The notes: generated by a model from the sequence alone, not told the origin. 50,564 nt of DNA from Cytophagales bacterium (GCA_013298075.1 JAAFJG010000030.1:1-50564); one strand, 5' to 3'; positions 1-42,609 are shown, counted from the first letter of the stretch. Translations and numbers: made by a program.

Positions 1-1
1 T

Positions 2-874: not shown

Positions 875-899
875 AACTTAAACACTTTTTTTAATATTT

Positions 900-1391
900 A
901 TGAAAAATATCCTTATTATTTTGCTTTTATGTATAAGCAATATTGCGTTTTCGCAGAATTTATATTTGATTTATGACCCTACCGAGCCTATTGTTACCAA
1001 AGATGTTCGTAAGTATATTGGTCATCATGGTAACGCTGTTATGAAACAATGCGGAGTAGGTAAATTGGGGAACTACGGTTATTCTTTTGGTTATCCTTGG
1101 TATGGTGGAGTAGGCTTGCAACTCAAAAAAAAGACAGACATAGCACCTGTGAGTATGACGGTTGCTCAAACGCAAAGTCTTTATCCTAATGCGATGAATG
1201 CTACTCAATTAGACCAACTTATGCAACCTATTATTGATCAACAATATGCTTTAACCGCTCCCTTTCCACAACCTGAAAATAGACCTAGTGTGTTATATTT
1301 TGAGCAATTTCAAAAAATATTTGTGATAGAATATTTAGGAAATGGACAAGCACAAGTAGTGGAAGTGCGGATAACTAGTGCTTTTAAGTAA
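900..1391 (+). CDS. Small exported hypothetical protein (signal peptide MKNILIILLLCISNIAFSQ)
   Basis: 163-aa ORF starting 25 nt after the HExxH gene, with an N-terminal hydrophobic signal peptide ending 'AFSQ'. A hairpin+T-tract terminator follows it. Confidence 0.55.
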   Translation: MKNILIILLLCISNIAFSQNLYLIYDPTEPIVTKDVRKYIGHHGNAVMKQCGVGKLGNYGYSFGYPWYGGVGLQLKKKTDIAPVSMTVAQTQSLYPNAMNATQLDQLMQPIIDQQYALTAPFPQPENRPSVLYFEQFQKIFVIEYLGNGQAQVVEVRITSAFK

Positions 1392-1447
1392 TTATTCTTT
1401 TGATTTTATTAAAAATAATTATCAACATTTTCTTTTGTTACTAAAAA

Positions 1448-1483
1448 CCTTGCATTTATTTTTTTAAATGCAAGGTTTTTTTG
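1448..1483 (+). terminator. Rho-independent terminator (ccttgcattta...aaatgcaagg + T-run)
   Basis: A perfect ~10-bp inverted repeat followed by TTTTTTT, immediately downstream of the 900..1391 gene. Confidence 0.6.
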
Positions 1484-1646
1484 TTTATAATTTCTGAAAT
1501 AAACAATTTTTTTTTAGATAAAAAAATGTATATAGTTTCTAAGAAATATACCAAGAAATAAAAAAATCTCAAACGATAAATTTCAATTATTTTCATATTT
1601 CAAAACAAAATTATTGCACAAATTTTTATTATTGAGTAGAAAAGAT

Positions 1647-1654
1647 TAAATTTG
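1647..1654 (+). promoter_or_regulatory. Candidate Bacteroidota -7 promoter box (TAAATTTG, matching TAnnTTTG) upstream of gcvP
   Basis: The sequence matches the Bacteroidetes sigmaA -7 consensus TAnnTTTG about 70 nt upstream of the gcvP start. A tandem 'aattcctaatt' direct repeat lies between the box and the ATG. Confidence 0.3.
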
Positions 1655-1722
1655 CATAATTTTTTATATAGTTCAAAAATAAATTTCTAATTCCTAATTT
1701 TTAATTCCTAATTAAAATATAA

Positions 1723-4644: not shown

Positions 4645-4663
4645 TTTTTTGTTGATATGATAG

Positions 4664-4714
4664 AAAAATGGCTGTATTTTTTTTGAAAATACAGCCATTT
4701 TTTTTTTTTTTCGA
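4664..4714. terminator. Hairpin (aaatggctgtatttt/aaaatacagccattt) + long T-tract; a likely bidirectional terminator between convergent genes
   Basis: Perfect inverted repeat followed by T13, between the gcvP (+) stop and the stop of the minus-strand gene 4756..5391. Confidence 0.6.
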
Positions 4715-4755
4715 GGATAAACTTGAAAAATAATAAGAATAAAATTTATCAAAAA

Positions 4756-5502: not shown

Positions 5503-7596
5503 TTGCAGAAAATAAAAACTATGAAAGCAAACGAAACAAAAGTAGAAGGTTTTTTATCTTCTAATAAAACACAATTTGTCATTCCTGTATATCAGAGAAA
5601 TTATGATTGGACTGCCAAAGAATGTAAACAATTATTAAACGATATTTTGGGAATAGGAAGGACTAATAATAATTCTTTGCATTTTATTGGGAGTATCGTA
5701 CACGTACACGAAGGCATAACGACTTCTTCACGAACTACAGAATTGGTAATTATTGATGGACAACAAAGATTAACTACTATTACACTGATTTATATTGCTT
5801 TATATTGGTTGGCAAAAGAAATAGACAATAAACCATTAGCCGATGATATTTATGAAACTTATCTAACGAATAGGCACGTATCCGAAAGTGAAAAGTTAAA
5901 ACTTCGCCCAACAGACAATAACGACAAAGCATTAAAATATTTATTGCGTGCTGATAAAGATGAAGAATATACAGATTATTCAAGATTAGTGAATAATTTT
6001 AGATATTTTCAAACAAATATACATAAAGAAAATTATCAAGATGTTAGAGATGGATTGAATAGATTGATGTTTGTGGAAGTGGCTTTGGATAGAACTCAAG
6101 ATAATCCGCAAAGAATTTTTGAAAGCTTAAATTCTACGGGACTTGCGCTTTCTCAGTCTGATTTAATTCGAAATTATATATTGATGTGTCTCGAACCCAA
6201 AGAACAACAAGAGATATACACAAAATATTGGGAATATATCGAAAGACTTGCCAAAGAAGAAAGCAATAATCAAACAAGAGTTTCTGATTTTATTCGTGAT
6301 TTTTTAACACTCGAAAATAAAAACATTCCTAATAAAGGAGAGGTTTATAATGAATTTAAGAAAAAATATCCAACGGACAAAGAGCAATTAAATCTTACGC
6401 TTGCCAAATTAAAATCGTTGGTAAATTTTTATAATAAACTTATCAATCCAGAAAAGGAAAATGATAATGATATAAAAACGCATCTAAAATATATCAAACA
6501 TTTGCAAATAGAAGTAACATATCCTTTTTTGATGAAAGTGTATGAAGATTATGCGAATAAAATTATTTCTAAAGCAGATTTTATTCAACTATTACAAATT
6601 GTACAATCTTATGCTTGGCGAAGATTTATTGTTGGATTGCCTACTAATGCACTCAATAAGGTATTTATGACGCTTTATGATAAAATTGATTTAGATAATT
6701 ATATTATTTCAGTTCAAAGAGCATTGTTAGAGAAAAAAGGAAACCAAAAATTTCCAAGAAATGACGAAGTTGAAAATGCTTTGAAATTAAAAGATGTTTA
6801 TAATATACAACCTAAAAATAGAACTTATTTTTTAGAAAGATTAGAAAATTTCAAAAATAATGAATCTGTACAAATTCACGATAACGAAAATATAACTATT
6901 GAGCATATTTTTCCTCAAAATCCAAGTCCAAAATGGAAAATTGAAATGAATGACGAAGCCGCTTTTAATGAAATGAAAAATATACATTTACATACGATTG
7001 CGAACTTGACATTGGTTGGGCATAATAGTAGTTTGGGTAATAAAACTTTTCAAGAAAAAAAAGAATTAAAAGATGTGGGTTATGAAAGCAGCCGTTTGTG
7101 GCTCAATAAATATCTATCTACGATAGAAAAGTGGGATGTAGAAACATTAGAAAATAGATTTCAAGAAATACGAAAACGCTTTTTTGAAATATGGGAAATT
7201 CCTAGTATTGTTGTAAGAGAAAATAACGAAACGGAAATTAATATTTTTGATGCAGAAGACCCTACAAATAAAAAATTAGAGTACGCAATTTTCTTTGATG
7301 AAATAATTATAACAGATAATTTTGCTATTTTTTATGTAAAAATAATGAAAAAATTATTTGAATTAGATTCTTCTTTGTTTTTTGAAACCGATTTAAAAAC
7401 AAAAATTGCTTCTGTAAACGATACTTGTGTAATCTTTAGACAATCAGCAACAATTAGCGAACATTACGTGATAGATACTCATTCATCAAGTTCTACAAAG
7501 TTTAAAATAATTAAACAAGCATTAGAATTATTCGAATTCGAAGATGAATTATTTATAAAGTATGTTAATGAAACTAAAAAAACTTCGCTTTTTTAA
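5503..7596 (+). CDS. DUF262 (ParB-like NTPase/nuclease) + DUF1524 (HNH-like) protein; GmrSD-family type IV restriction endonuclease-like
   Basis: N-terminal 'IPVYQRNYDW' and 'IIDGQQRLTTI' motifs are diagnostic of DUF262. C-terminal 'ITIEHIFPQNP' ... 'HTIANLTLVGHNSSLGNKTF' motifs are diagnostic of DUF1524 (His-Me finger). Confidence 0.8.
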   Translation: MQKIKTMKANETKVEGFLSSNKTQFVIPVYQRNYDWTAKECKQLLNDILGIGRTNNNSLHFIGSIVHVHEGITTSSRTTELVIIDGQQRLTTITLIYIALYWLAKEIDNKPLADDIYETYLTNRHVSESEKLKLRPTDNNDKALKYLLRADKDEEYTDYSRLVNNFRYFQTNIHKENYQDVRDGLNRLMFVEVALDRTQDNPQRIFESLNSTGLALSQSDLIRNYILMCLEPKEQQEIYTKYWEYIERLAKEESNNQTRVSDFIRDFLTLENKNIPNKGEVYNEFKKKYPTDKEQLNLTLAKLKSLVNFYNKLINPEKENDNDIKTHLKYIKHLQIEVTYPFLMKVYEDYANKIISKADFIQLLQIVQSYAWRRFIVGLPTNALNKVFMTLYDKIDLDNYIISVQRALLEKKGNQKFPRNDEVENALKLKDVYNIQPKNRTYFLERLENFKNNESVQIHDNENITIEHIFPQNPSPKWKIEMNDEAAFNEMKNIHLHTIANLTLVGHNSSLGNKTFQEKKELKDVGYESSRLWLNKYLSTIEKWDVETLENRFQEIRKRFFEIWEIPSIVVRENNETEINIFDAEDPTNKKLEYAIFFDEIIITDNFAIFYVKIMKKLFELDSSLFFETDLKTKIASVNDTCVIFRQSATISEHYVIDTHSSSSTKFKIIKQALELFEFEDELFIKYVNETKKTSLF

Positions 7597-7689
7597 ACAA
7601 CAATAATAACAATTATGAAAATATAAAAATATTTTAATTTATTTGTAAATATAAAAATATTAAACTAATTTTGTGTAAAATAAACTAAA

Positions 7690-7923
7690 ATGAATAAAAT
7701 AAAACCTTGGAGTATTTCTACTACTGTTCATAATCCTGAAAGAATTAGGAGTTTTTTGTTTGTACTTAAAATGTTGGAGGGCAATGTTTGGAATAAAGAA
7801 ACCCAAAATCAGTTTCAAATAATGCTTATACAATATAAATTCTATGGAGCGGGTGAAAAACATTTCTATAAAGATTTAACTCAAACACAAATTGATTTAT
7901 TAGAAACACCTAATATATACTAA
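7690..7923 (+). CDS. Small hypothetical ORF (77 aa); possibly a gene remnant
   Basis: The ORF is open but has no recognisable domain. It ends exactly at the terminal inverted repeat of a 132-bp palindromic element. Confidence 0.25.
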   Translation: MNKIKPWSISTTVHNPERIRSFLFVLKMLEGNVWNKETQNQFQIMLIQYKFYGAGEKHFYKDLTQTQIDLLETPNIY

Positions 7924-8055
7924 GTGTTCAGTCAGAGTGAAAAATTCGTTTTTTATTTTGTAAATAGCATCTAAAAAATAGGCATTAACGCCTATTTTTT
8001 AGATGAGAAACAAGTTTTTATTTTATTATCCGAAAATTTGAGAAAGACTGAACAC
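7924..8055. repeat. 132-bp element bounded by 10-bp terminal inverted repeats (gtgttcagtc / gactgaacac) with an internal 16-bp-stem palindrome (7968..8005); MITE-like or a strong bidirectional terminator
   Basis: The inverted repeats and the internal palindrome 'catctaaaaaataggc-attaac-gcctattttttagatg' are visible directly. The 'gcatctaaaaaata' core recurs at 22392 and 22450. Confidence 0.45.
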
Positions 8056-8283
8056 TAGAGGCAATTCAAAAAATATATTTCCAAAAAAACACCTCATACT
8101 ATCTCAAACCACCACCAAAAAATAATAAAATAGGTGATTTTACTTTTAAATATTATCAAAAAAATCAAAAAAAATCAAAAAAAATCTAATAAAAACTTTG
8201 AATATTATAAAAAAGCACTATATTTGTCCATAAAAGATAAAAATATAAGATAAAATATAAAATATAAAATATATTCATAAAAA

Positions 8284-9516
8284 ATGGTACTAAACTACCT
8301 TTGGGTCAGTTTTTTTTTGATTGCCTTTGTGTTAGCAAGCGTCCAAGCATTTGTGTTTGGAAACACACAAGTCTTTCAACAAATGGTCAAAGCAACCTTA
8401 GACGCATCTGAAACTGGTTTTCAGGTCGCATTGGGCTTGACGGGTACGATGACTATGTGGTTAGGTTTTATGAAAATTGGCGAAAAAGCAGGCATTGTAA
8501 ATGTGTTGGCTTTTTTATTCGGACCTTTTTTTAGGCGATTATTTCCCGAAATTCCACCTAATCACCCATCATTGACTCCCATTTTTATGAAGTTTTCGAT
8601 GAATATTTTAGGATTGGATAATGCAAGTACGCCTTTGGGAATAAAGGCAATGAAAGAAATGCAAGACTTAAATCCAAGTCCTGATACGGCTTCGAATGCT
8701 CAAATTATGTTTACGGTATTGAATACAACAGGTTTGACTTTAATTCCTATTACGATTATTGCGTATCGTGTGCAATATGGAGCGCAAAATCCTACCGATA
8801 TTTTTATGCCCATTATTTTGGCGACTTCCGTTACTAATATTTCGGCTTTGATGATGGTGGCTTTTATTCAAAAAATAAATGTATTTAATAAAGTTTTTTT
8901 GGCTTATTTAGGCGTTTTTGTCGCGTTTTTATTGAGTATGGTTTTATATTTTGCTTATTTGCCTCCTTCTGAAATTAGTAGAGTTTCGGGCTTTATGAGT
9001 AATTTTTTATTATTTTCTTTGATTGTTACTTTTATTTCTATGGCTGTTTGGCAAAAAGTCAATGTATATGAATCTTTTATTGAAGGAGCAAAAGAAGGTT
9101 TTGAAGTGGCGATTCGGATTATTCCGTATTTAGTTGGTATTTTGGTAGGAATTGCGGTTTTTCGGGCATCAGGTGCGTTAGAATTTATGATCAATTCTCT
9201 AAAATATGTGTTGCAAGAATCAGGAGTTGAGGGCGAATATAGTTTTGCTTTGCCCGTTGCTTTTTTGAAACCTTTGAGCGGGACAGGTGCGTCAGGTATG
9301 ATGCAAGATATTATGAAAACTTATGGACCAGATTCTTTTATGGGATATTTGGCGTGTGTATTTCAAGGAACGACAGACACGACTTTGTATATTATTGCCG
9401 TTTATTTTGGAGCCATCAATATTAAAAAAATTAGATATACTGCCACAGTAGGACTTTTGGCTGATGTAATTGGCTTGACTTCTGCTATTTGGATTGCTTA
9501 TTTTTTCTTTTCTTAA
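8284..9516 (+). CDS. Polytopic membrane protein, fused SpmA/SpmB-like nucleoside-recognition (Gate) domain protein
   Basis: 410 aa with many hydrophobic segments. Its similarity is to 'spore maturation protein A/B'-type Gate-domain proteins, which are common in Bacteroidota. Confidence 0.5.
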   Translation: MVLNYLWVSFFLIAFVLASVQAFVFGNTQVFQQMVKATLDASETGFQVALGLTGTMTMWLGFMKIGEKAGIVNVLAFLFGPFFRRLFPEIPPNHPSLTPIFMKFSMNILGLDNASTPLGIKAMKEMQDLNPSPDTASNAQIMFTVLNTTGLTLIPITIIAYRVQYGAQNPTDIFMPIILATSVTNISALMMVAFIQKINVFNKVFLAYLGVFVAFLLSMVLYFAYLPPSEISRVSGFMSNFLLFSLIVTFISMAVWQKVNVYESFIEGAKEGFEVAIRIIPYLVGILVGIAVFRASGALEFMINSLKYVLQESGVEGEYSFALPVAFLKPLSGTGASGMMQDIMKTYGPDSFMGYLACVFQGTTDTTLYIIAVYFGAINIKKIRYTATVGLLADVIGLTSAIWIAYFFFS

Positions 9517-9605
9517 TATGTTAATTTTCAAAATCACAAAAATTTTATTATTTCTTATTTTTATATTTAAAGTTCAAAAAAATTCACATTAAAAAAAAGT
9601 ATATT

Positions 9606-9965
9606 ATGGAAACAACTCCAAAACAGGATTTAGCCATGGCTAAAGGTAAACATTATTTGTTTAAAAGTAAAATGAGAGCATATCTTGATGGCTCAAGAGA
9701 AGTAGAAGAAGCAGTTTTAGCAGATTATAATGCTTGTGCTTTGGGAAAATGGGTCAATGAAGTGGGCAAAGTGAAATTTGCTGAATTTGCTGAAGTAACG
9801 GCTTTGGATTTAACACACCAAAAAATTCACGGCAAAGCAAACGAAATTATCAGACTAAAAAAAGAAGGAAACGACGAAGAAGCAGAGAAAAAAATGCTTG
9901 ATATTGAAGAAATTGGTGCCGAAATTATTCATCATATCGAAATTTTAGAAGAAAAATTAACCTAA
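9606..9965 (+). CDS. Small CZB (chemoreceptor zinc-binding)-like domain protein
   Basis: 119 aa with 'CALGKW' followed ~25 aa later by 'HQKIHGK', which matches the Cys-x-LG-x-W ... HxxxH signature of the CZB domain. Confidence 0.45.
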   Translation: METTPKQDLAMAKGKHYLFKSKMRAYLDGSREVEEAVLADYNACALGKWVNEVGKVKFAEFAEVTALDLTHQKIHGKANEIIRLKKEGNDEEAEKKMLDIEEIGAEIIHHIEILEEKLT

Positions 9966-9979
9966 AAAAACAAAAAAAT

Positions 9980-10018
9980 GGCAGAAAATTATGAAAGTAA
10001 TTTTTTGCCGTTTTTTTT
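9980..10018 (+). terminator. Hairpin (ggcagaaaatt / aattttttgcc) + T8 terminator after the CZB gene
   Basis: Imperfect inverted repeat followed by TTTTTTTT immediately 3' of the stop at 9965. Confidence 0.45.
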
Positions 10019-10354
10019 AATCAGTTTTATTTCATTGCTAATTTATTTTCCATAAGAAATACATCATTTAAAAACAACATATTTGCATTTTTTTTCAAAT
10101 ATTCAAATAGCTTTTATAATGAATTTAGAGCAATACTAAATATTTTTAAAATTTTAAAAAAATATTTAATAAATTCTTTGTTTTTTCAATAAACACTATT
10201 TATCTTTGCATACCCTTTAATACGCAAAATAAAAAAAAGAATTTTTAGATTTTTCTTTAGCATTTGTAAGTTTCTATAACTTAATACAAATGTTAGCAAA
10301 ATCATATCATTAGAAAATATAGCATTACTTTTTTAAACCATTTTAAGTAATTAT

Positions 10355-11344
10355 ATGAGCCAAATATTTAAAGATAGCTTTCAGCAAGCAACTTCACCAG
10401 AAATTCCTAATTTATTAGATATTTTAAATTCTTATTACGAAAAAATACCAGACCACCAAAAAGGAAGTTTTAATACTTTAAAAAATAGATTTTATAATCA
10501 ACCCAATAATTTCGAACTTGAAGAATGGAAAAGTCAGTTTTTAACGCTTATAAATGGTTTAAAATTTGAAATTAGCATGGAAAAGAAAAAAAAAGGAATG
10601 GAAAACCAAAAAAAAAGAATCAATGTAACTTTTGTTTTTAAAATTTTTATTAGTATTAGCTTTAGTTTTGCTTTTATTGGAGGAATTGCTTGGATTTTAA
10701 TTTATCCATCGTGTAAAAAAATTACAGTAACTTTTAAAATACATGATAAAAAGACAGATTCTATTTGTAAGCAAGGTGTCAAATTAATATTGAAAGAACT
10801 TAAGAATGGAGATGGTGAACGAATTATTACTATTGGAACAGATGGTATATTAAATGTACCAGATATTGAATTAAAAGAATCTAAAAAATTTGAAATACAT
10901 TATTGGTTATCAGATTCTAAATCTATACTAATTAGCGCAGTAAATTTAAATGATGTTAATATAAATAATTGTTCCATAACAAGAGATGAATATGTAGATT
11001 TTCCAGATGTTTATTATAATAATGGCAAAAAAACTTCTAATGAAAAGAAACAAGAAGGAAATAATGCACCTACTTCTATAAATAAATCTGAAGAAAAACC
11101 TAAAGTCTTTAAGGAGGATACTAACCCATTTAGAAGTATTATCATAACAACAAAAAATGGCAATGAAACTAATTACATTTTTCAAGTAAATGGCGAAGAT
11201 ATTAGTCGTTTTGATGCTAGTAGTGGAATAAAAAGTTGTACTTTAAAAATCGATACATCTGTAAAAAAAATAGTATGCATTGGTGGTAACGGTAAACAAG
11301 ACACTATAAAATTGGGAAAAGAAAACTCCTATTCTATCAATTAA
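10355..11344 (+). CDS. Hypothetical membrane-anchored protein (N-in, single TM, ~210-aa extracytoplasmic domain); gene 1 of a four-gene operon of unknown function
   Basis: 329 aa. Residues ~88-115 are hydrophobic (VTFVFKIFISISFSFAFIGGIAWILIY) and are preceded by a Lys-rich stretch. No domain is recognisable. The coding DNA is extremely AT-rich. Confidence 0.55.
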   Translation: MSQIFKDSFQQATSPEIPNLLDILNSYYEKIPDHQKGSFNTLKNRFYNQPNNFELEEWKSQFLTLINGLKFEISMEKKKKGMENQKKRINVTFVFKIFISISFSFAFIGGIAWILIYPSCKKITVTFKIHDKKTDSICKQGVKLILKELKNGDGERIITIGTDGILNVPDIELKESKKFEIHYWLSDSKSILISAVNLNDVNINNCSITRDEYVDFPDVYYNNGKKTSNEKKQEGNNAPTSINKSEEKPKVFKEDTNPFRSIIITTKNGNETNYIFQVNGEDISRFDASSGIKSCTLKIDTSVKKIVCIGGNGKQDTIKLGKENSYSIN

Positions 11345-11365
11345 ATATAGAAATGAATTAAAACT

Positions 11366-12196
11366 ATGAAACTATACATTATTTTTTCGGTGATAATATT
11401 TTTTTTAATACAAAATAAAGTATTTACACAATGTAATGGTATCATCTATATAGTCGAGGGGGTTGATATAAGTATAAGTGATATGAATGCTGAACAACGC
11501 TTGATATTTAGTCAGATGAAAAAGAGTTGGTATAGTAGAGCATCTGCTAAATTGACAAAACTTGGTTTTACTACTGAAAGACAAATTAATGAACCTGTTA
11601 AGAAATATCCTTATTTGAAACTTGAAATTTCTGGTGACGTATCAAGCGTGATAGTTAGTTTAGTATATTTTAGCAAAGCAGGTCTTGGTGGAACAACATA
11701 TGCAGTACCAAAAGAAGGAGGAGGATCTATTAGTCTTTTAAAACTTAGTATTACAGAACAATTATTAGAAAATCTGATACAAGAATGGTATGACTTTAAT
11801 TGTAAAAAAAATCAAAATTGTGATTGTAAAGATGAAGGGTACAAATATTATGTTGAAAATTGGCGTTTTTATCAAAAATATTCAAATAAATGTTTTCCAT
11901 TACTTGATGATAAAGAACAAAAATTATTATATGCGATAAAACAAAGTAAGATAAGTCGAAGATGTAACACAGGGGAAGATTATTATATAATAAACTATCC
12001 TTTCTTTGAGTCTTTTTTTGATATTATTCATAAAATATCTAGGTATAAAAAATTTACTAAGACACAAAAAGAGGATTGTTTAAATAAAATAGATACAGCT
12101 ATATTAGGCTGTGGAGATGAAAAAGTTTTTAAAGAACTCAAAACAGATAAAACTATTTTATCAGATATTATCAAAAAGTGTATAAAAAATAAATAA
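11366..12196 (+). CDS. Hypothetical exported protein (signal peptide; Cys-rich C-terminal half); operon gene 2
   Basis: 276 aa with an N-terminal signal peptide 'MKLYIIFSVIIFFLIQNKVFTQC' and multiple Cys residues (NCKKNQNCDCKDEGY). No recognisable domain. Confidence 0.55.
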   Translation: MKLYIIFSVIIFFLIQNKVFTQCNGIIYIVEGVDISISDMNAEQRLIFSQMKKSWYSRASAKLTKLGFTTERQINEPVKKYPYLKLEISGDVSSVIVSLVYFSKAGLGGTTYAVPKEGGGSISLLKLSITEQLLENLIQEWYDFNCKKNQNCDCKDEGYKYYVENWRFYQKYSNKCFPLLDDKEQKLLYAIKQSKISRRCNTGEDYYIINYPFFESFFDIIHKISRYKKFTKTQKEDCLNKIDTAILGCGDEKVFKELKTDKTILSDIIKKCIKNK

Positions 12197-12197
12197 T

Positions 12198-13994
12198 ATG
12201 AACAAATATATTTACTCTTTTTTAATTTTATTTTATTTTCAGAATGTTGGTTTATTTGCTCAAATTGCTAGTAAATTGGAAAAAATAACTGAAGATGGCT
12301 TTGAAAAATGCCTACAAGGAACTATCTTTAATTGTAAAGATATATTCTATACAAATTTATCTGGAACATTTGAAGAAAAAATATTAATACTAAAAAATAT
12401 CATACCATTGGCAGGTATTTCAGCAGATCCTAATAGTATGAATAAAAAAGCAAGTAATTTAAAAAGCCAAATACTTGAAAGCGATAAACATCCTATACTT
12501 TTTTTTGATTCTTTTGCATTATATCTCAAAGTTAAATTTGAAAGAATGGAAACAGATAATAAAAATAATAAAAATAGTAAATATTTATCATACGACAGTA
12601 CTTTAAAAGAAACTGCTTTATATGGAGTTTATGTTGCAAGAATTGGATTAGCTATTTTAAACGAATATCATAATAATAGAATACCATTTACTAAAGCACC
12701 AGATTTTAGACAAATTAAAGAAATATCTAATATAAAGGAAAATAAAAAGTATAAAGGAAAAGTAAATAATTGTGAGAACTGTGGAATTACATCTTTAAAA
12801 TTACCTGATAATTTAGCTGCTCTTGATTCTTTTTTTGTAATCAAAATAGAGCAATATCAAAAAGAAATTGAAAAGGAAATTAAAGATACAGAGAAATTTC
12901 AAAAAGAAATAAACGAACAAATCATTTCTTTGAATAATTTGATAGAAAAAACAAAATCTTTAAAAAAAAGACATCCTAGTTTTAAAGCTGTAGATATTAA
13001 ACGCTATGAAAATACAAAACTTTGGGAATCTCGTACTATGAGTTCAAAAGGATTTGAGGAATCTTATTACCCTGTTTTTAATTTTTCACCAAATAATAGG
13101 TGTGATGCTAGGACAAAAGAGTTAGTAAAACCTATAAGTGATACTATTTTAAAGGTAGCTAACAGTTATGAACAAAATATAACAAATATACTCGAAAAAC
13201 TCAATGCAATTGATACCCTTGTACAAGGTACTCCAATAGAATTATTTAATAAACTAGACTCACAAGACACGCTGACATTAAAAAAATATAAGGAGGGAGA
13301 GTTTAAAGTAATAAGAGAATCTTTAACTGAGAGTAGAAAACTCCAAGAAATAAATGTAAGAATAAAAGGAAAAGCAGATGGTAATGGATATAATAGTTGT
13401 ATCAGTAATATTTGTCCAGATTTAAGAAAATTTAAAACTATTGTTTTTGAACAATATTCAGCAGGTTATTGGGGTAGTACAAGTCCCATTAGTGTATTTC
13501 AACAAAAAAATAATTCACAAGAATCTAAAGTAAATTTAAAATTCTATGATGAAAGTTCATATTTGGGCGATCATTGTCAAAATAAGGATAAAAATAAAAT
13601 ATTAGTAAAGGGTAGAAATATTACAAATCTACAACTTGCTTTTTTACGAGCTATTTGCGCGGGAGAGTATATGTATGATAGTTTTTTAATGTCTAATACT
13701 TTGACGATGATTAGCAAAAAAATACTAATCGAATATCAAGCATATGAATATCAACAACAACTTTCTGATAAAGATAGAGGTTTTGATATAGCGATAAATT
13801 ATAAAACGCATAATTTCGCTTTGGATGAAGTAATGAAAGATTTGGATCGAATAAAAAATATTTTAGTAACTTTAACTGAGAAAGATATTAAAGATTATTT
13901 AAAATATCTAGAAAAAGTTCGTAGCCAATTGGTAATAAAAGATTTTACAAAACTTACCGAATTATTCATACAAAAAATAAAAATAAAAAAATGA
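12198..13994 (+). CDS. Hypothetical exported protein with a central coiled-coil-like region; operon gene 3
   Basis: 598 aa with a signal peptide ending 'FAQ'. Its start is 1 nt after the gene-2 stop. It has a Lys/Glu-rich heptad-like segment (KEIEKEIKDTEKFQKEINEQIISLNNLIEKTKSLKK). Confidence 0.55.
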   Translation: MNKYIYSFLILFYFQNVGLFAQIASKLEKITEDGFEKCLQGTIFNCKDIFYTNLSGTFEEKILILKNIIPLAGISADPNSMNKKASNLKSQILESDKHPILFFDSFALYLKVKFERMETDNKNNKNSKYLSYDSTLKETALYGVYVARIGLAILNEYHNNRIPFTKAPDFRQIKEISNIKENKKYKGKVNNCENCGITSLKLPDNLAALDSFFVIKIEQYQKEIEKEIKDTEKFQKEINEQIISLNNLIEKTKSLKKRHPSFKAVDIKRYENTKLWESRTMSSKGFEESYYPVFNFSPNNRCDARTKELVKPISDTILKVANSYEQNITNILEKLNAIDTLVQGTPIELFNKLDSQDTLTLKKYKEGEFKVIRESLTESRKLQEINVRIKGKADGNGYNSCISNICPDLRKFKTIVFEQYSAGYWGSTSPISVFQQKNNSQESKVNLKFYDESSYLGDHCQNKDKNKILVKGRNITNLQLAFLRAICAGEYMYDSFLMSNTLTMISKKILIEYQAYEYQQQLSDKDRGFDIAINYKTHNFALDEVMKDLDRIKNILVTLTEKDIKDYLKYLEKVRSQLVIKDFTKLTELFIQKIKIKK

Positions 13995-14839
13995 AAGCAT
14001 TATATTTATTATTTTTTTCGTTATTTGTTTATCAAAATATTAATGCACAACAGATTAAGATTGATACAATAACATTTGAATCATCTTCCTCTCAAATAAA
14101 AATACATATAAAACCTCTTGAATCATTAGCAAATAGAGGACATGACTTGTTGGTTTTTTATAAATTTGAGAATAATAAAAATACACAACTAAATCCTTCT
14201 ATTATTTTTGAGAATACTCGTGAGATATACTCAATTGACTTAAAATTAGATACAACTAAATATAATTTTTTTAGCTTACAATCTTTTGAAGGAATATCTA
14301 GTTTAAGAAATGCAGGTAGTGCTATAAATTTTAGTATATGGACGACTGGAAACCAAAAACAAAACGAAATTAAATTAAATCATAAAAATATGGTTTATAT
14401 AAAAATAATTTATTCTCCAATTGACTGTATAAATTCATTATCTTTTGAATCTTTTGAAAAACATAAAGTAAGAGATACTTTAATAAAACTTGAAATTTAT
14501 TTTAAAGTTGAGAAAAGTAGCACTCAAACAAATAATACTGCTCGTTTTAAGATAATATATAAAAAAGGAATTGAAAAATTATATACAGAGGATATTATCA
14601 AGCGAGTCAATGCTACAACCCCTGTTTTGGTGTATAGTAAAAATATCCATCCTGATAGTATATATGACATTAACGTTTATTTAAAATGTCTAGATTTTCC
14701 AAGCGGGTATGAGAGTATGCAAATTTATAGTATTTATAAAAAAGGTGCTACTAATATAGCATCACTTCGACGGTCAATTAGAATTAAAAAGAAGAGTCCT
14801 AACTGTATTAATTTTGTTTTAAGAAAAAAGAATAAATAG
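13991..14839 (+). CDS. Hypothetical exported protein; operon gene 4
   Basis: 282 aa with a signal peptide 'MKALYLLFFSLFVYQNINAQ'. Its ATG overlaps the gene-3 stop (ATGA), which implies translational coupling. Confidence 0.55.
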   Translation: MKALYLLFFSLFVYQNINAQQIKIDTITFESSSSQIKIHIKPLESLANRGHDLLVFYKFENNKNTQLNPSIIFENTREIYSIDLKLDTTKYNFFSLQSFEGISSLRNAGSAINFSIWTTGNQKQNEIKLNHKNMVYIKIIYSPIDCINSLSFESFEKHKVRDTLIKLEIYFKVEKSSTQTNNTARFKIIYKKGIEKLYTEDIIKRVNATTPVLVYSKNIHPDSIYDINVYLKCLDFPSGYESMQIYSIYKKGATNIASLRRSIRIKKKSPNCINFVLRKKNK

Positions 14840-15031: not shown

Positions 15032-17659
<2,628 letters not shown>

Positions 17660-36240: not shown

Positions 36241-37280
36241 TTCTTTACAAAAAGTTTAAATTTCCTTTTAATTGAACTGCAAAAAAAACGTATCTTTTGG
36301 AATTTTCCAAAAAAAATGTTTTAAAAATAATTATTTTTTATCTAAATCATTGAAAATCAATGAAATAAATAAATAAATATTTTATTTCGATACAAAGGTA
36401 AATACTATTTGTTGTAATTCAAATATTTTAAAAGAAAAAATAAAAAAATTAAACAAAATAAATAACATGAGTACCATTTTTGATATTTTAAAAAAAGTGC
36501 TAAAAAATGTCAATCTCAGATTCTTTAAAGTATGAACTAACTTGGTGCAATGTTAATATATTAAATACACTTTTGCAAGTTTGTTGTTGGTATACTGAAT
36601 ATCCAACCGTAATATGATTGGCTAGTTAGGGTTATTTTAGTTTATGTAATTTATTTCGTCTTTTTGGGTTTAAAAATTAGTTAGACGCGAATTAGTATTT
36701 TATTATTTAAAAAGTATATTTTTAAAACCAATAAGGAGCATATTTTAGTTTTTGATGAAATGGTAGGAGAAAATCACGCAAAAAAAATTTTGGTATAGAT
36801 AATTTTTGGAGTAATCTTGATAAAAAATCCATCAGTAGTGTTTTTATTGCATCAAGGAGTTTTGTATCTATTTCTGATAAAACTTCTTTCAGATTTCAAA
36901 AAAATTAAAGAAACATAAGTTAAAAATATGTTAATACTTAATTTTTGATGTGGTTAATTTCAAAAATACTGCTAAAACATTACAGAGAAAAATACAATAA
37001 ACCTAAATTAAGCATAAGAGATTAAAAAAACATAAAAGACAACATTCGAGTATCAAAAACTATTATAAAGAACATCAAAAAGATGGTATTTATATTTTAA
37101 AGGACGATATTTTAAACAAATATATGTCAGGTGACCTGATTAACTAAGATAAAATGGCACTCACGTTAATCTAAAAAAAGTTTTTTTTATTTTTTATTTT
37201 TTTGATGCTTTCCCAGATTCTTTACAGAAAAAAAACTGCAAATTTTAAAGGAATAAGTAAAAAAAACAAATTTCAATATT

Positions 37281-38864
37281 TTACACCCAAATTGCCAAGA
37301 TATTTTTATCACCCAATTCGATATTTTCTTCTTTAAATTCTTTGTGTTGATTAAAATTAAAAATCAATAAAAAGCCTTCTTTTTTGTTGTATAAGTCTAA
37401 ATATTCGCTTAATTGTTCTAATCCTTTTTGGTGATAACTTTCGCCTCGCCAAATTTTTAATTCTAAAATATACAACGTTTTCATATAGGTTATCACAATA
37501 TCCATTCTTCTTTCTTCCTCAATCGTTGGCTCTTTGAAATCAAAACCTACACCATTTATAATCGGTCTTAAAAAAGATAAAAACAATAAACGACCTTCTC
37601 TTTCAATAAATTCCCCATCTTTTTGGTTGTAATTTTCGAGCATAAATTGTTGGAATTTACGCAAAATTTTAGGCATATCTAATGTGTTATCTATCGAAGT
37701 ATAAGAATCGGACAGCAAAAAATTAGGTCTGTATTCGTGTTTTCTAATCGCTTGTGTGGTAAAAAATAAATACATTCTTTGTTCAAAAATACGATTATTT
37801 ATTTTACAATATTCTGCATCTCTGTCAAAAATTCCATACGTATTTGCCAATTCTATCAAATAATCGTTGGCATTATTAGGTAATTTTAAACCATTAATCA
37901 CTACATCTTTTGTCAAAGCATATAAGTCTTGATTGTTTTCTATATTTTTAAATAAATCATCAAAAATGGTAGTGGTATAATTTATTTTCACTAAATATTT
38001 AAAACTATTTTCTATCTCTTCTAAAGTCCATTCTGTCTGATTTTCTTTTTCGGGTAATAAAATTTCATCAATCACTTTACACATTTTACTGACTAAAAAT
38101 GGATAACCTGACGTATAATAAAAAATACGTTCTGAGAGTTTTTGAATATCCATTTTGATATTTTTTTCTTCTGAATATTGCAACAGCATTGTCGAAATTT
38201 CTGCAGGATTGAAAAACATATTCACTTTAAAATCTACAGCAATATTCCAAGGACTATTTATTTTCTTTTCCTCATCAGGACGAAGTTTTAATTTGATGGT
38301 TTTTATATCGTGAATACCTACTAATACAACTGAATGAAAAGTTAAAAAAGGTGCTAAATTTCTATCTAAATATTTATTTCTTAATAGACCTAAAAAATGT
38401 AAAAATAATTGATTATTCGTCGATTTATCTACTTCATCAATCAAAACGACTACTTTTTTTTGAACTTTTTGTGTAAAATCAGTGATTTGTAAAGATAGTT
38501 TTGCAAAACCAACTTTATCAGTTTCAAAATTTTTATCTATAAAAATTTGTTGATTTGGATAACTAAATTTTAATCTATCATTAAATTTTCCTATAAAATG
38601 AGAAGAAAATTTATCAGCATCTTCATAAGCATCGTCATCACTAATTTCAAAACTCAATAAAATGGTTAAATAGTCATCTTTAGTTAACAACTCTTCATAC
38701 AGACGATATAAAGAGGTCGTTTTACCAAATTGACGAGGACGATTCATAATAAAATATTTTTTACGTTCAATCAACTCAAAAATATTTTCAATTTTTGGAG
38801 TAGTATCCACCATAAAATGTTCGTCTTTGATACAAACGCCTGTGTCGTTAAATTCTTTTTTCAT
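37281..38864 (-). CDS. AAA-ATPase-like (PF09820-type) + C-terminal PD-(D/E)XK nuclease (PDDEXK_9-type) protein; paralogue 1 of a tandem array
   Basis: 527 aa. N-terminal P-loop 'FIMNRPRQFGKTTSL'. C-terminal 'RRMDIVITYMKTLYILELKIW' carries the D...ExK nuclease motif. Confidence 0.75.
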   Translation of the reverse strand: MKKEFNDTGVCIKDEHFMVDTTPKIENIFELIERKKYFIMNRPRQFGKTTSLYRLYEELLTKDDYLTILLSFEISDDDAYEDADKFSSHFIGKFNDRLKFSYPNQQIFIDKNFETDKVGFAKLSLQITDFTQKVQKKVVVLIDEVDKSTNNQLFLHFLGLLRNKYLDRNLAPFLTFHSVVLVGIHDIKTIKLKLRPDEEKKINSPWNIAVDFKVNMFFNPAEISTMLLQYSEEKNIKMDIQKLSERIFYYTSGYPFLVSKMCKVIDEILLPEKENQTEWTLEEIENSFKYLVKINYTTTIFDDLFKNIENNQDLYALTKDVVINGLKLPNNANDYLIELANTYGIFDRDAEYCKINNRIFEQRMYLFFTTQAIRKHEYRPNFLLSDSYTSIDNTLDMPKILRKFQQFMLENYNQKDGEFIEREGRLLFLSFLRPIINGVGFDFKEPTIEEERRMDIVITYMKTLYILELKIWRGESYHQKGLEQLSEYLDLYNKKEGFLLIFNFNQHKEFKEENIELGDKNILAIWV

Positions 38865-39075
38865 AGTTTTAATGTTTTATTTTTTTGCAAATATATGTAT
38901 TTATTCATCAATTTCTTTGTATTTTTAGTAAAATATATAAACGAAATTCTAAGCCTAATAAGAAAGCAAGATATTGTCCTGATTGGTGTTTTTCTATTAT
39001 ATTTTTTGATACTGTCCCAAATTCTTTACAGAAAAAAACTGTAAATTTTAAAGGACTAAGTAAAAAAACAATATT

Positions 39076-40658
39076 TTACACCCAAATTGCCAAGATATTT
39101 TTATCACCCAATTCGATATTTTCTTCTTTAAATTTTTTGTGTTGATTAAAATTAAAAATCAATAAAAAGCCTTCTTTTTTGTTGTATAAGTCTAAATATT
39201 CGCTTAATTGTTCTAATCCTTTTTGGTGATAACTTTCGTCTCGCCAAACTTTTAATTCCAAAATATAAATATTAGTCGTATAAGTGATGACAATATCCAT
39301 TCTTCTTTCTTCGCCAATATTTGGATCTTTAAAATCAAAACCACGTCCATTAATAATTGGTTTTAGGAACGATAAAAAGATTAAACGTCCTTCTCTTTCG
39401 ATAAAATCAGCATCTTTTTGACTATAATTTTCTTTCATAAATTCTTGAAATTTACGCAAAATTTTAGGCATATCTAACGTGCCTTCGTAGGTGGAATATA
39501 CATCACTCGAAGCACTTAATTTATTATATTTTCCTGTTATAATCATTCCTACTAACAAATGATTGTATAATTTTTGCTCAAAAATACGATTATGAATTTT
39601 GCAATATGTTCCATCTGTATCCAACATTCCATACACTTTTGCTAAAGAAATAGTTTGGTCTGAAGTTATAAAAGGAACTTTCAAACCTGCCATTAAAATA
39701 TTGGTTAATAATTGTTTTATATCAGGATTATTATCTACATTTTTAGTCAAATCATCAAAAATAGTGGTCATATAATCATCTTTTACCAAATATTTAAAGC
39801 TATTTTCAACTTCATCTATCGTCCATTCTGTGTGATTTTCTTTTTCTGGTAATAATATTTCATCAATTACTTTGCACATTTTGCTCACCAAAAAAGGATA
39901 ACCAGATGTGTAATAAAAAATGCGTTCTGATAGCTTTTGAATATCCATTTGTACGTTTTTTTCTTGCGAATATTGTGAAAGCATTGTCGAGATTTCTGCG
40001 GGATTAAAAAACATATCTACTTTAAAATCAACGGCAATATTCCAAGGGCTATTAAATTTTTTCTCTTATCAGGACGAAGTTTTAATTTGATGGTTTTTAT
40101 ATCATGAATACCAACTAATACAACAGAGTGAAAAGTCGAAAAAGGAAATATATCTCTCTCCAAATATTTATTTCTCAATAAACCCAAAAAATGTAAAAAT
40201 AATTGATTATTCGTTGATTTATCCACTTCATCAATCAAAACAACTATTTTTTTTTCTACTTTTTGCACAAAATCAGTAATTTGCAAAGATAATTTATCAA
40301 AACCTTTTTCGATGGTTTCAAAATTAAGATTGATAAAAATTTCTTGATTTGGATAATATTGTTTTAATTTACGATTAAATACATTGACAAAATAAGCACA
40401 AAAAACATCAGCATCTTGAAAAACATCATCACCACTTCCTTCAAAACTCAATAAAATCGTCAAATAATCTTCTTTAGTTAATAATTCTTTATGCAAACGA
40501 TATAAAGCAGTCGTTTTTCCAAATTGACGAGGACGATTCATAATAAAATATTTTTCATATTCTATCAATTCAAAAATTTTATCAATTTTTGGAGTAGTAT
40601 TCACCATAAAATGTTTGTCTTTGATACAAACGCCTGTGTCGTTAAATTCTTTTCTCAT
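39076..40658 (-). pseudogene. Paralogue 2 of the AAA-ATPase/PD-(D/E)XK array, disrupted by a 1-nt deletion (frameshift near 40020..40080)
   Basis: Two adjacent ORFs (40017..40658 and 39076..40014) together cover the full paralogue. Alignment with copy 1 shows 'ctattaaattttttctcttatcagg' where copy 1 has 'ctatttattttcttttcctcatcagg', i.e. 25 nt against 26 nt. Confidence 0.7.
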
Positions 40659-40707
40659 AGTTTTAATGTTTTATTTTTTTTGCAAATATACGCATTTTTT
40701 TTACAAA

Positions 40708-42291
40708 TTACACCCAAATAGCTAAGATATTTTTATCTTTAAATTCAATATTTTCTTCTTTAAATTCTTTATGTTGATTAAAATTAAAAATCAATAAAAA
40801 GCCTTCTTTTTTGTTGTATAAGTCTAAATATTCGCTTAATTGCTCTAATCCTTTTTGGTGATATGCTTCGCCTCGCCAAATTTTTAATTCCAAAATATAT
40901 AACGCTTTCATATAGGTTATTACAATATCCATTCGTCTTTCGTCACCCACTGTTGGCTCTTTGAAATCAAAACCTACACCATTTATAATCGGTCTTAAAA
41001 AAGATAAAAACAATAAACGACCTTCTCTTTCAATAAATTCCCCATCTTTTTGGTTATAATTTTCGAGCATAAATTGTTGGAATTTACGCAAAATTTTAGG
41101 TATATCTAACGCATTGTCTATCGAAGTATAAGAATCGGACAATAAAAAATTAGGTCTATATTTGTGTTTTCTAATTGCCTGTGTGGTAAAAAATAAATAC
41201 ATTCTTTGTTCAAAAATACGATTATTGATTTTACAATATTCTGCATCTCTGTCAAAAACTCCATACGTATTTGCCAATTCTATCAAATAATCGTTGGCAT
41301 TATTAGGTAATTTTAAACCATTAATCACTACATCTTTTGTCAAAGCATATAAGTCTTGATTGTTTTCTATATTTTTAAATAAATCATCAAAAATGGTAGT
41401 GGTATAATTTATTTTTACTAAATATTTAAAACTATTTTCTACATCTGTCAAATCCCATTCTGTCTGATTTTCTTTTTCGGGTAATAATATTTCATCAATC
41501 ACTTTACACATTTTACTGACCAAAAAAGGATACCCTGACGTATAATAAAAAATACGTTCTGAGAGTTTTTGAATATCCATTTGTATATTTTTTTCTTCTG
41601 AATATTGCAATAGCATTGTCGAAATTTCGGCAGGATTAAAAAACATATTGACTTTAAAATCTACAGCAATATTCCAAGGACTATTTATTTTCTTTTCCTC
41701 ATCAGGACGAAGTTTTAATTTAATCGTTTTTATATCGTGAATACCTACTAAAACAACTGAATGAAATGTTGAGAAAGGTGCTAAATCTCTTTCTAAGTAT
41801 TTATCACGCAACATTCCCAAAAAATGTAAAAATAATTGATTATTAGTTGATTTATCTACTTCATCAATTAAAACAACTACTTCTTTTCCTACTTTTTGAA
41901 TAAATTCAGTAATTTGTGCTGATAATTTATTAAATTCTTTTTCACTTGTTTCAAAATTTTCATTAATAAAAATTTCTTGATTGGGATAATATTGTTTTAA
42001 TTTACGATTAAAAAGTGTTATAAAATAATTAGAAAAACTTTCTATGTCTTTAAAAACGTTATCGCTGCTTATTTCAAAACTCAATAAAATTGTTAAATAA
42101 TCGTCTTTAGTTAATAATTCTTTATGCAAACGATATAAAGCAGTCGTTTTTCCAAATTGACGAGGACGATTCATTATAAAATATTTTTCATATTCTATCA
42201 TCTCAAAAATTTTATCAATTTTTGGAGTAGTGTTTACCATAAAATGTCTTTTTTCTACGCAAACGCCTGTGTCGTTAAATTCTTTTTTCAT
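40708..42291 (-). CDS. AAA-ATPase-like + PD-(D/E)XK nuclease protein; paralogue 3 of the tandem array
   Basis: 527 aa, about 85-90% identical to paralogue 1 by eye. The same P-loop and D...ELK motifs are present. The upstream flank (42292..42430) repeats the 38865..39000 flank. Confidence 0.75.
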   Translation of the reverse strand: MKKEFNDTGVCVEKRHFMVNTTPKIDKIFEMIEYEKYFIMNRPRQFGKTTALYRLHKELLTKDDYLTILLSFEISSDNVFKDIESFSNYFITLFNRKLKQYYPNQEIFINENFETSEKEFNKLSAQITEFIQKVGKEVVVLIDEVDKSTNNQLFLHFLGMLRDKYLERDLAPFSTFHSVVLVGIHDIKTIKLKLRPDEEKKINSPWNIAVDFKVNMFFNPAEISTMLLQYSEEKNIQMDIQKLSERIFYYTSGYPFLVSKMCKVIDEILLPEKENQTEWDLTDVENSFKYLVKINYTTTIFDDLFKNIENNQDLYALTKDVVINGLKLPNNANDYLIELANTYGVFDRDAEYCKINNRIFEQRMYLFFTTQAIRKHKYRPNFLLSDSYTSIDNALDIPKILRKFQQFMLENYNQKDGEFIEREGRLLFLSFLRPIINGVGFDFKEPTVGDERRMDIVITYMKALYILELKIWRGEAYHQKGLEQLSEYLDLYNKKEGFLLIFNFNQHKEFKEENIEFKDKNILAIWV

Positions 42292-42609
42292 AGTTTTAAT
42301 GTTTTATTTTTTTTGCAAATATACGTATTTATTCATCAATTTCTTTGTATTTTTAGTAAAATATATAAACAAAATCCTAAGCTTAATAAGAAAGCAAGAT
42401 ATTTTCCTGATTGGGCTTTTTTATTTTTTTTAATCAAAAAAGTTGTTCAATATATTTATCTGTGATGTATTTTTTATGAAATATAAAAACAAAATTGCAA
42501 CGAATTTGGGACAAAATGAAATATTTTTTATAAAAATATAAAAATATAATAAAAAAGTCATAAAAATTTACGAATTTTGCTTTTCAATAGAAAAAATCAT
42601 TAAAAAATT

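Follow-up and report, generated by a model that had tools for sequence, protein, structure and literature searches.

A tandem array of mosaic AAA+ ATPase-nuclease paralogues, one of them frameshifted, in a Cytophagales contig

Three paralogues lie head to tail on the minus strand

We analyzed a contig of 50,564 nucleotides (nt) from a Cytophagales bacterium (GCA_013298075.1, JAAFJG010000030.1:1-50564; GC content, 30.5%), hereafter called the window, which carries an array of paralogous genes for a P-loop ATPase joined to a C-terminal nuclease of the PD-(D/E)XK type. Open reading frame (ORF) listing, repeat finding, a three-way alignment, and self-BLAST concordantly revealed three head-to-tail copies on the minus strand, termed c1, c2, and c3:

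37281-38864, minus strand: c1, intact gene of 527 amino acids (aa) (ORF listing, Pfam, AlphaFold2 [AF2] model, fold matches)
39076-40658, minus strand: c2, frameshifted copy of 1583 nt (ORF listing, three-way alignment, repair)
40708-42291, minus strand: c3, intact 527-aa gene (ORF listing, Pfam)

The ORFs start 1795 and 1632 nt apart, with the direct-repeat families in register. An original prediction, made from the sequence alone, had described three tandem minus-strand copies, c1 and c3 being intact and c2 split into 213 and 312 aa, and ORF listing and alignment agree with it. By self-BLAST, the window contains neither a fourth copy nor a remnant of one, and this includes the ORF-free stretch at 36241-37190.

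The proteins join an ORC/STAND-like ATPase to a PD-(D/E)XK nuclease

We then analyzed the sequences of the encoded proteins. The region from aa 14 to 265, comprising the ATPase and its lid, corresponds to Pfam entry PF14516 (AAA_35; 37.3/33.6 bits, gathering cutoff of 27), for which matches are also precomputed for most homologues. PF09820 (AAA-ATPase_like; cutoff of 26.1) matched c1 (29.7 bits), c3 (34.3 bits), and the N-terminal ORF of c2 (31.4 bits), and PF01637 scored 19.5 bits, under its cutoff of 33.2. At the C terminus (aa 442 to 511), PF13366 (PDDEXK_3) exceeded its cutoff of 22 marginally, with 23.5 bits, and reached 26.4 bits in the C-terminal ORF of c2; the NCBIfam model TIGR04256 (GxxExxY) gave 17.7 bits for a cutoff of 35. 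The original prediction had named PF09820 and PF08011 for hidden Markov model searches: the former scored above its cutoff, whereas PF08011 (PDDEXK_9) had no match in c1 even at E ≤ 10, and its best match in any relative (L004, E = 0.088) amounted to 13.2 bits for a cutoff of 25.5. A sequence search of the PDB returned nothing meaningful.

An alignment of 71 homologues, 47 to 88% identical to c1, served to define invariant residues in the following motifs:

38715-38741, minus strand: Walker A of c1, RPRQFGKTT, aa 42-50, with invariant R44, Q45, G47, K48, T49, and T50
38427-38450, minus strand: Walker B of c1, VVLIDEVD, with DEVD at aa 143-146 and invariant D143, E144, and D146
37413-37604, minus strand: PD-(D/E)XK core of c1, with E421/E423, D455, E468-x-K470, and Q484

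Since E421, D455, E468, K470, and Q484 are invariant in the 71 sequences, the nuclease is, to judge from its residues, catalytically intact. We also modeled full-length c1 with AF2 (predicted local distance difference test score [pLDDT] of 82) and aa 286 to 527 alone (pLDDT of 77.5). The model matched signal transduction ATPases with numerous domains (STAND), namely, plant NLRs, CED-4, MalT, Avs5, and Avs3, as well as ORC/Cdc6, TnsC/MuB, BrxC, and RdrA, in agreement with Foldseek. The C-terminal model matched restriction endonuclease folds (EcoT38I, 7.5; BamHI, 7.4; CinB, 7.2; McrC, 6.1; Cap4, 6.0), which places this domain in the PD-(D/E)XK superfamily. The domains follow each other as AAA+ core (aa ∼20 to 200), lid (∼215 to 292), winged helix (∼295 to 375), linker, and PD-(D/E)XK nuclease (∼397 to 527), and the succession of AAA+ core, helical lid, and winged helix is that of the ORC/Cdc6-PF01637-STAND class. 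Both halves of the predicted architecture were recovered: the P-loop ATPase (RPRQFGKTT) by PF14516 and PF09820 and by the fold matches, and the C-terminal D...ExK nuclease by the marginal match to PF13366, the invariant residues, and the restriction endonuclease folds. We found no signal peptide, as the N terminus, MKKEFNDTGVCIKDEHFMVDTT, has no hydrophobic core.

The middle copy is interrupted by a single-nucleotide deletion

Alignment of c2 to c1 and c3 revealed exactly one 1-nt deletion, after CGTCCTGAT, at ∼40068:

40056-40068, minus strand: frameshift site, where a G is missing from GAT(G)AAGAG (alignment, repair, two-frame translation)

The deletion, which does not lie in any homopolymer, leaves an ORF of 213 aa (40017-40658, ending in TAG at 40019-40017) and one of 312 aa (39076-40014, starting with ATG at 40014). 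Putting one G back yielded a 527-aa frame with RPDEEKKFNSPWN, the reading also found at this place in the intact relatives P0126 and P0006. The motif NSPWNIAxDF (invariant S204, P205, W206, N207, A209, and D211) is missing from both ORFs, and c2 is therefore probably nonfunctional. An in-frame A_AAA_AAT heptamer occurs at 40062-40056, 5 nt downstream of the deletion, and one may speculate that a -1 ribosomal slip there could restore the frame ...KRKN/FNSPWNIAVDF...; the heptamer is present because the ancestral codons at this place are Lys-Lys. The nonsynonymous-to-synonymous substitution ratio (dN/dS) of c2 is not above that of the intact pair c1/c3, which fits a recent inactivation. With intact relatives of the N-terminal part of c2 in other assemblies as well, the proposal that the frameshift is fresh appears plausible.

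The array is old and partly homogenized by gene conversion

Overall nucleotide identity is 89% for c1/c3, 80% for c1/c2, and 79% for c2/c3, and it varies strongly along the genes (positions counted within the gene):

nt 61-150: c2 and c3, 97-98% identical
nt 181-360: all pairs, 64-82% identical
nt ∼540-1400: c1 and c3, 91-100% identical
nt 871-1020: c1 and c3, 99-100% identical
nt 1411-1584: c1 and c2, 98-99% identical

The claim that c1 and c3 are highly similar thus holds for nt ∼540 to 1400, but not for nt 181 to 360, where they are 64 to 73% identical. Pairwise synonymous divergence (dS) was 0.34, 0.63, and 0.71, with dN/dS of 0.22 to 0.26 (Nei-Gojobori), and these dS values identify the copies as old paralogues under purifying selection rather than fresh duplicates. 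The idea of a recent duplication must therefore be abandoned, the stretches of high identity being conversion tracts in old paralogues. Indeed, the longest concordant runs of variable sites exceeded those of permutations for c1/c3 (nt 880 to 1025, p = 1e-4), c2/c3 (p = 3e-4), and c1/c2 (p = 2e-3), which demonstrates gene conversion or recombination among the three copies. dN/dS was 0.06 to 0.11 in the core versus 0.3 to 0.56 in the variable segments; positive selection on the latter was not shown, with dN/dS below 1 and dS near saturation. We conclude that the three genes form an array of long standing, partly homogenized by gene conversion, in which a 1-nt deletion has, probably recently, inactivated one copy.

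Two hypervariable modules assort independently

Identity, dN/dS, and entropy delimited a first variable segment, A, and a second one, B, lies in the region of the winged helix:

segment A, aa 73-135, minus strand: c1, 38460-38648; c2, 40254-40442; c3, 41887-42075
segment B, aa 291-400, winged helix and linker, minus strand: c1, 37665-37994; c2, 39460-39789; c3, 41092-41421

Within the array, segment A has 64 to 82% nucleotide identity versus >90% elsewhere and a dN/dS of 0.30 to 0.56. For segment B, c2 carries allele B2 and c3 carries B1, near-identical to that of c1. In the AF2 model, segment A is a helical insertion between strand beta2 (aa 65 to 71) and the Walker B strand (aa 137 to 143). 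The initiator-specific motif (ISM) of DnaA and Orc1/Cdc6 occupies the same topological position, between beta2 and the Walker B strand, and both the ISM and the winged helix touch DNA in Orc1/Cdc6-DNA complexes, such as 2qby. We infer from the modeled topology that segment A may be equivalent to the ISM of ORC/Cdc6.

We then compared 17 close paralogues from ∼8 assemblies. Their mean pairwise identity is 82% in the N terminus, 88% in the core, and 86% in the nuclease, and 63% in both segment A and segment B. When segment alleles were defined as clusters at 80% identity, the combinations A1B1, A1B2, A3B1, and A3B2 were all present, which satisfies the four-gamete argument for exchange between the two segments. 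Across the family, column entropy is highest at aa 76 to 135 and 316 to 400.

The same pattern was found in other lineages. The complete genome of Desulfonema limicola (CP061799.1, locus L019) contains a tandem triplet at 6420-7997, 8001-9578, and 9768-11351, in which Dl_1 and Dl_2 are 99 to 100% identical at nt 1 to 150 and Dl_1 and Dl_3 are 99 to 100% identical at nt ∼600 to 1200 and 1380 to 1587, with only 18 to 22% amino acid identity in segment A in every pair. In a metagenome-assembled genome (MAG) of Eubacteriales, three copies, two of them adjacent, show independent assortment of the two segments: Eu1 and Eu2 share 87% identity in segment A and 54% in B, and Eu2 and Eu3 share 86% in B and 32% in A. 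Its recurrence in these two cases makes the mosaic a property of the family and not an artifact of a MAG.

Flanking sequences contain a putative promoter element and a conserved hairpin

Parts of the flanks recur between copies:

42292-42421, minus strand: 5' flank of c3, a homologue of the c1 5' flank (repeat finding, alignment)
40659-40707, minus strand: 49-nt spacer between c3 and c2, its proximal 35 nt, TATATTTGCAAAAAAAATAAAACATTAAAACTATG, equal to the stretch upstream of c3
38995-39075, minus strand: 3' flank of c2, a homologue of the c1 3' flank that forms the same hairpin (-18.3 kcal/mol, z = -2.85)
38865-38993, minus strand: 5' flank of c1, ∼130 nt, shared with c3 (92% over 119 nt)
37184-37280, minus strand: 3' flank of c1, extended hairpin (-17.6 kcal/mol, z = -2.8)

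Self-comparison located both of the flanks quoted in the original prediction, the 5' flank at 38875-38993 and 42303-42421 (92% over 119 nt) and the 3' flank at 37184-37265 and ∼38989-39075 (88%, self-BLAST). The units are unequal: the 3' flank is absent from c3, c2 retains just those ∼35 nt of the 5' flank that lie nearest the gene, and a three-way alignment including the flanks gave spacers of 49 nt between c3 and c2 and 211 nt between c2 and c1. The 35-nt stretch has exact matches at 40656-40690 and 42289-42323, and none of 100 shuffles gave any.

A TAtaTTTG box lies ∼27 nt upstream of the ATG in c1, c2, and c3, the c2 box having been kept along with this 35-nt stretch. The -7 consensus of Bacteroidota promoters is TAnnTTTG, and by this consensus the box is a putative -7 element. 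A scan for sigma-70 promoters was uninformative, with 50 sites for 47 expected.

The 3' flanks of c1 and c2 have 80 to 95 nt in common and are 88% identical (self-BLAST). Their hairpin is supported by a two-sided compensatory change, UUCC/GGAA in c1 versus GUCC/GGAC in c2, and is probably a terminator or an mRNA-stabilizing stem-loop. The 3' arm of the hairpin downstream of c2 is the 11-mer GAATTTGGGAC (39014-39024, minus strand), of which an inverted copy lies just upstream of the c3 5' flank (42502-42512, plus strand). As the sole candidate for terminal inverted repeats of a transposable unit, this 11-mer was rejected: such a match was reached in 8 of 100 shuffles, and it is absent from other loci.

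Genomic context and distribution

The array is surrounded by housekeeping genes, with rnc, fabF, and acpP on one side and a PP2C phosphatase, an acyl-CoA dehydrogenase, PHO4, gpsA, and sdaA on the other. The window lacks integrase, transposase, and replication genes, and neither a defense island nor mobile-element hallmarks adjoin the array. In the ∼950 nt between acpP and c1 (36241-37190), no ORF exceeds 43 aa, and Rfam gave no match. FabF of the window is 95% identical to that of a "Bacteroidetes bacterium" MAG and 75 to 78% identical to those of Microscillaceae and Cytophagales MAGs. In GCA_004293265.1 (locus L016), nucleotide homology of 87% extends from rnc to 220 nt past acpP and ends at window position 36461, and the array is absent from the syntenic site; position 36461, inside the gap between acpP and c1, marks a synteny breakpoint. 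No AAA_35 array was found anywhere in this locus, which at 1-4729, ∼5 kb upstream of acpP, carries a small defense-like cluster of Abi_2, DUF1016/YhcG nucleases, Bro-N, and an SMC_N/AAA_15 ATPase. In D. limicola (L019 3235-11351), the triplet, which has housekeeping genes around it, lies a few genes downstream of rnc (RNase III), and the order in the window is rnc-fabF-acpP-array; this resemblance may be a coincidence.

Two sister contigs carry four paralogues each, as the comparison of copy number with related assemblies proposed in the original prediction brought out, and each locus holds 1 to 4 copies; for the orthologous locus, the number of copies was deduced from cluster membership only. 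Elsewhere, the gene is usually a singleton among unrelated neighbors, and no neighbor gene is conserved across loci L001, L006, L009, L011, L013-L015, and L019-L021. A 529-aa neighbor of P0022 was considered as a paralogue and rejected. The nearest outgroup is P0009 (69% identity), which directly follows parA-parB and has barstar, a large ResIII helicase, and phage-type helix-turn-helix (HTH) regulators beside it.

The family comprises at least 5,440 clusters at 90% identity; at 50% identity, we counted 3,038 clusters at E ≤ 1e-3, of which 364 remained at E ≤ 1e-30. The family is not specific to Bacteroidota, as Desulfobacteraceae, Anaerolineales, and Lachnospiraceae, as well as plasmids of Clostridium and cyanobacteria, also harbor close full-length relatives. 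Members from Bacteroidota and Desulfobacteraceae are ∼50% identical, and a contig scan for relatives returned Lachnospiraceae and Eubacteriales only (33 to 38% identity). Homologues reside on 24 plasmids, mostly large cyanobacterial ones, and none was found in the phage collection. In Pseudanabaena galeata CCNP1313 and Pseudanabaena sp. ABRG5-3, several plasmids of one strain each carry one distant full-length homologue (∼24 to 26% identity), one of which has a tyrosine recombinase next to it. The Pseudanabaena and Clostridium plasmids share no conserved partner gene.

Elsewhere in the window, we noted the following:

5503-7596, plus strand: GmrSD-type type IV restriction endonuclease (PF03235 and PF07510), ∼30 kb from the array and the sole recognizable defense gene of the window
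10355-14839, plus strand: four codirectional ORFs (329, 276, 598, and 282 aa) with no Pfam match at E ≤ 1e-4; the third and fourth share 4 nt
15071-17659, plus strand: gyrB, 862 aa, with an intein (PF14890, aa 466-651) between the DNA_gyraseB and Toprim (aa 652-756) domains
22969-25440, minus strand: bacterial major vault protein homologue, 823 aa (PF11978 MVP_shoulder, 6.7e-31; PF17795 Vault_3, 5.6e-8)
30493-31827 and 31931-33271: ORFs of 444 and 446 aa, with no Pfam match at E ≤ 1e-3

Proposed function and alternative explanations

We propose that the locus is a recombining array of standalone ATP-gated nucleases with diversified recognition modules, acting in defense or another genetic conflict, and we assign this explanation as a whole a probability of roughly 0.5. 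Its anatomical and evolutionary part, taken alone, is very probably correct; its functional part is more tentative, and we would not bet on it at even odds. Each gene stands by itself and encodes a single polypeptide with four parts. Binding of ATP would cause the ORC/STAND-like switch to oligomerize on nucleic acid, presumably DNA, the insert in segment A and the winged helix would make the recognition contacts, and the assembled switch would license the C-terminal PD-(D/E)XK domain to cut. Conversion between neighboring paralogues homogenizes the scaffold, and the two modules, as putative determinants of specificity, stay distinct and are re-assorted; the array would then amount to a small repertoire of specificities. 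Selection for varied specificity would be the easiest explanation for a uniform scaffold with re-assorted modules, and defense against foreign DNA or another genetic conflict appears to us the most likely role.

Several observations weigh against this proposal. The array and most relatives lie among housekeeping genes and not in defense islands, and no methyltransferase or immunity partner for self-protection is evident. No catalogued antiphage system in PADLOC-DB v2.0 gave a full-length match, and none matched the ATPase; the only matches, to PDC-M29B (E = 9e-6) and PDC-S54 (E = 1e-4), span ∼55 to 65 residues of the nuclease core. Our literature search, which covered PF14516/AAA_35, PF13366, COG1373/COG1672, and STAND conflict systems, yielded no study of the family's function. 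The suggested equivalence of segment A and the ISM comes solely from predicted topology, and dN/dS of the variable segments is raised yet below 1, which relaxed constraint explains as well as diversifying selection does.

The gene could also be selfish or serve the maintenance of a mobile element, for instance as an addiction-type nuclease or a stability or replication factor of a plasmid or integrative and conjugative element, spreading horizontally and multiplying at the locus with no benefit to the host. The surroundings of the outgroup P0009, with parA-parB, barstar, the helicase, and the phage-type HTH regulators, would suit such a gene, as would the 24 plasmids with homologues (several of them in one Pseudanabaena strain, and one followed by a tyrosine recombinase), the variable context with the array at a synteny breakpoint by acpP, and the ORC/Cdc6-like fold with its winged helix, which is the design of a replication initiator. 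We nevertheless regard this as unlikely, as the window has no integrase, transposase, or replication gene, convincing terminal repeats are missing (the inverted match of the 11-mer is within chance), phage copies are lacking, and the relatives are mostly chromosomal single genes among housekeeping genes. Strong purifying selection on the ATPase and nuclease cores is what one expects of a gene in use, whether it is selfish or benefits its host. Housekeeping neighbors, both in the window (rnc-fabF-acpP, PP2C, acyl-CoA dehydrogenase) and at the Desulfonema, Cytophagales, and other loci, together with strong purifying selection on the catalytic cores, would rather suggest a factor for DNA repair, recombination, or nucleoid organization that underwent ordinary subfunctionalization without any conflict. 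A gene of this kind would hardly be missing from the syntenic site of a relative with 95% identical FabF, vary from 1 to 4 copies per locus, or show a patchy distribution across phyla at ∼50% identity between Bacteroidota and Desulfobacteraceae, which points to horizontal transfer. Hypervariable modules that re-assort and the loss of one copy are likewise atypical of core functions, and we consider a housekeeping or regulatory role quite improbable.

Since paralogues of the DUF1703 family in Cardinium are predicted to be secreted (PMC6387759) and the source organism is an uncultured Cytophagales-like member of the Bacteroidota, we also considered a secreted effector nuclease directed at a host or competitor, as proposed for the Cardinium expansion. 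The probability of this is close to negligible: the N terminus has no hydrophobic signal peptide core and, with its invariant F5, G9, C11, and H16, forms part of the conserved ATPase domain, the nuclease strands run to the end of the protein and leave no C-terminal domain of the type IX secretion system, and an ATP-dependent switch would make little sense outside the cell. Finally, the triplication, the mosaic, or the frameshift could be an assembly or sequencing artifact, as the window is an entire MAG-type contig, a short-read assembler could go wrong on the tracts of up to ∼150 nt in which c1 and c3 are 100% identical, and a single-base indel, possibly a sequencing error, is checkable only against reads. 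Divergence of the copies by 11 to 20% overall makes a collapsed or duplicated repeat implausible, however, and sister assemblies independently contain four paralogues on one contig, the mosaic architecture is also seen in the complete genome of cultured D. limicola, and the base deleted in c2 lies outside a homopolymer. An artifact is thus very unlikely. Of the explanations considered, we favor the recombining array of putative ATP-gated nucleases, probably acting in genetic conflict.

Comparison with known systems

The array genes belong to the AAA_35/AAA-ATPase_like group, a sister subfamily of DUF1703 with ∼364 clusters (50% identity, E ≤ 1e-30), whose members are labeled "AAA family ATPase" or "Predicted AAA-ATPase/PD-(D/E)XK nuclease" in public databases. 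For DUF1703 (PF09820 plus PF08011), Knizewski et al. 2007 described a four-domain architecture with an RPRRFGKS Walker A motif, DExD, E420, and Q480 (PMC1913061), and Siozios et al. 2019 reported an expansion of DUF1703 paralogues with recombination in Cardinium cCpun (PMC6387759). The array proteins share the ∼520-aa plan of AAA+ core, lid, small helical region, and C-terminal PD-(D/E)XK domain, the Walker A motif RPRxFGK[ST] at residues 42 to 50, the DExD Walker B motif, and nuclease motifs (E∼420, D, ExK, and Q∼480 to 484) in matching positions; PF09820 scores above its cutoff, and multicopy expansion and recombination of paralogues are common to both. Unlike in DUF1703, the nuclease is matched by PF13366 and not by PF08011, and the ATPase scores higher with PF14516. 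The four-domain architecture and the paralogue expansion with recombination were therefore already known (PMC1913061 and PMC6387759). The useful lead of this analysis is that two discrete modules, at the ISM position and in the winged helix, re-assort in tandem arrays of three phyla, and such modules are not described in the two DUF1703 papers (PMC1913061 and PMC6387759).

The PF01637 ATPases PABY2304 (Pyrococcus abyssi, 2qen) and SSO1545 (Sulfolobus solfataricus, 2fna) and the Orc1/Cdc6 initiators (2qby, 1w5s, and 1fnn) are 10 to 13% identical to the array protein and, in contrast to it, have no nuclease domain; our analysis gave no evidence for a role of the array protein in replication. Compared to Avs3, Avs4, Avs5, and bNACHT, the array protein is smaller (527 aa) and has its nuclease at the C terminus rather than the N terminus, and it differs from Avs/NLR-like proteins in having no TPR, LRR, or WD40 repeats (Pfam scan and model) and no Avs/NLR match in PADLOC. 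As in type I HsdS, a conserved scaffold holds two variable modules, which recombination between neighboring paralogues re-assorts into a variety of combinations. The parallel concerns only how the array may work: there is no kinship in sequence or fold and no methyltransferase or HsdR partner. In a bolder reading, the family might consist of widespread "ORC-like" nucleases of restriction or immunity, each a single ATP-gated chain with bipartite recognition by the ATPase insert at the ISM position and the winged helix. Their arrays would serve as cassette libraries, in which conversion would even out the scaffold and shuffle the two modules into new specificities, like the target recognition domains of HsdS but within one polypeptide. 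We regard this generalization as doubtful. The family is large and spans several phyla, and the pattern of the locus is repeatable in Desulfonema and the Eubacteriales MAG. For now, the array adds an example to the paralogue expansions described for the sister family DUF1703; should the defense role be real, the known systems would gain a compact one made of a single gene.

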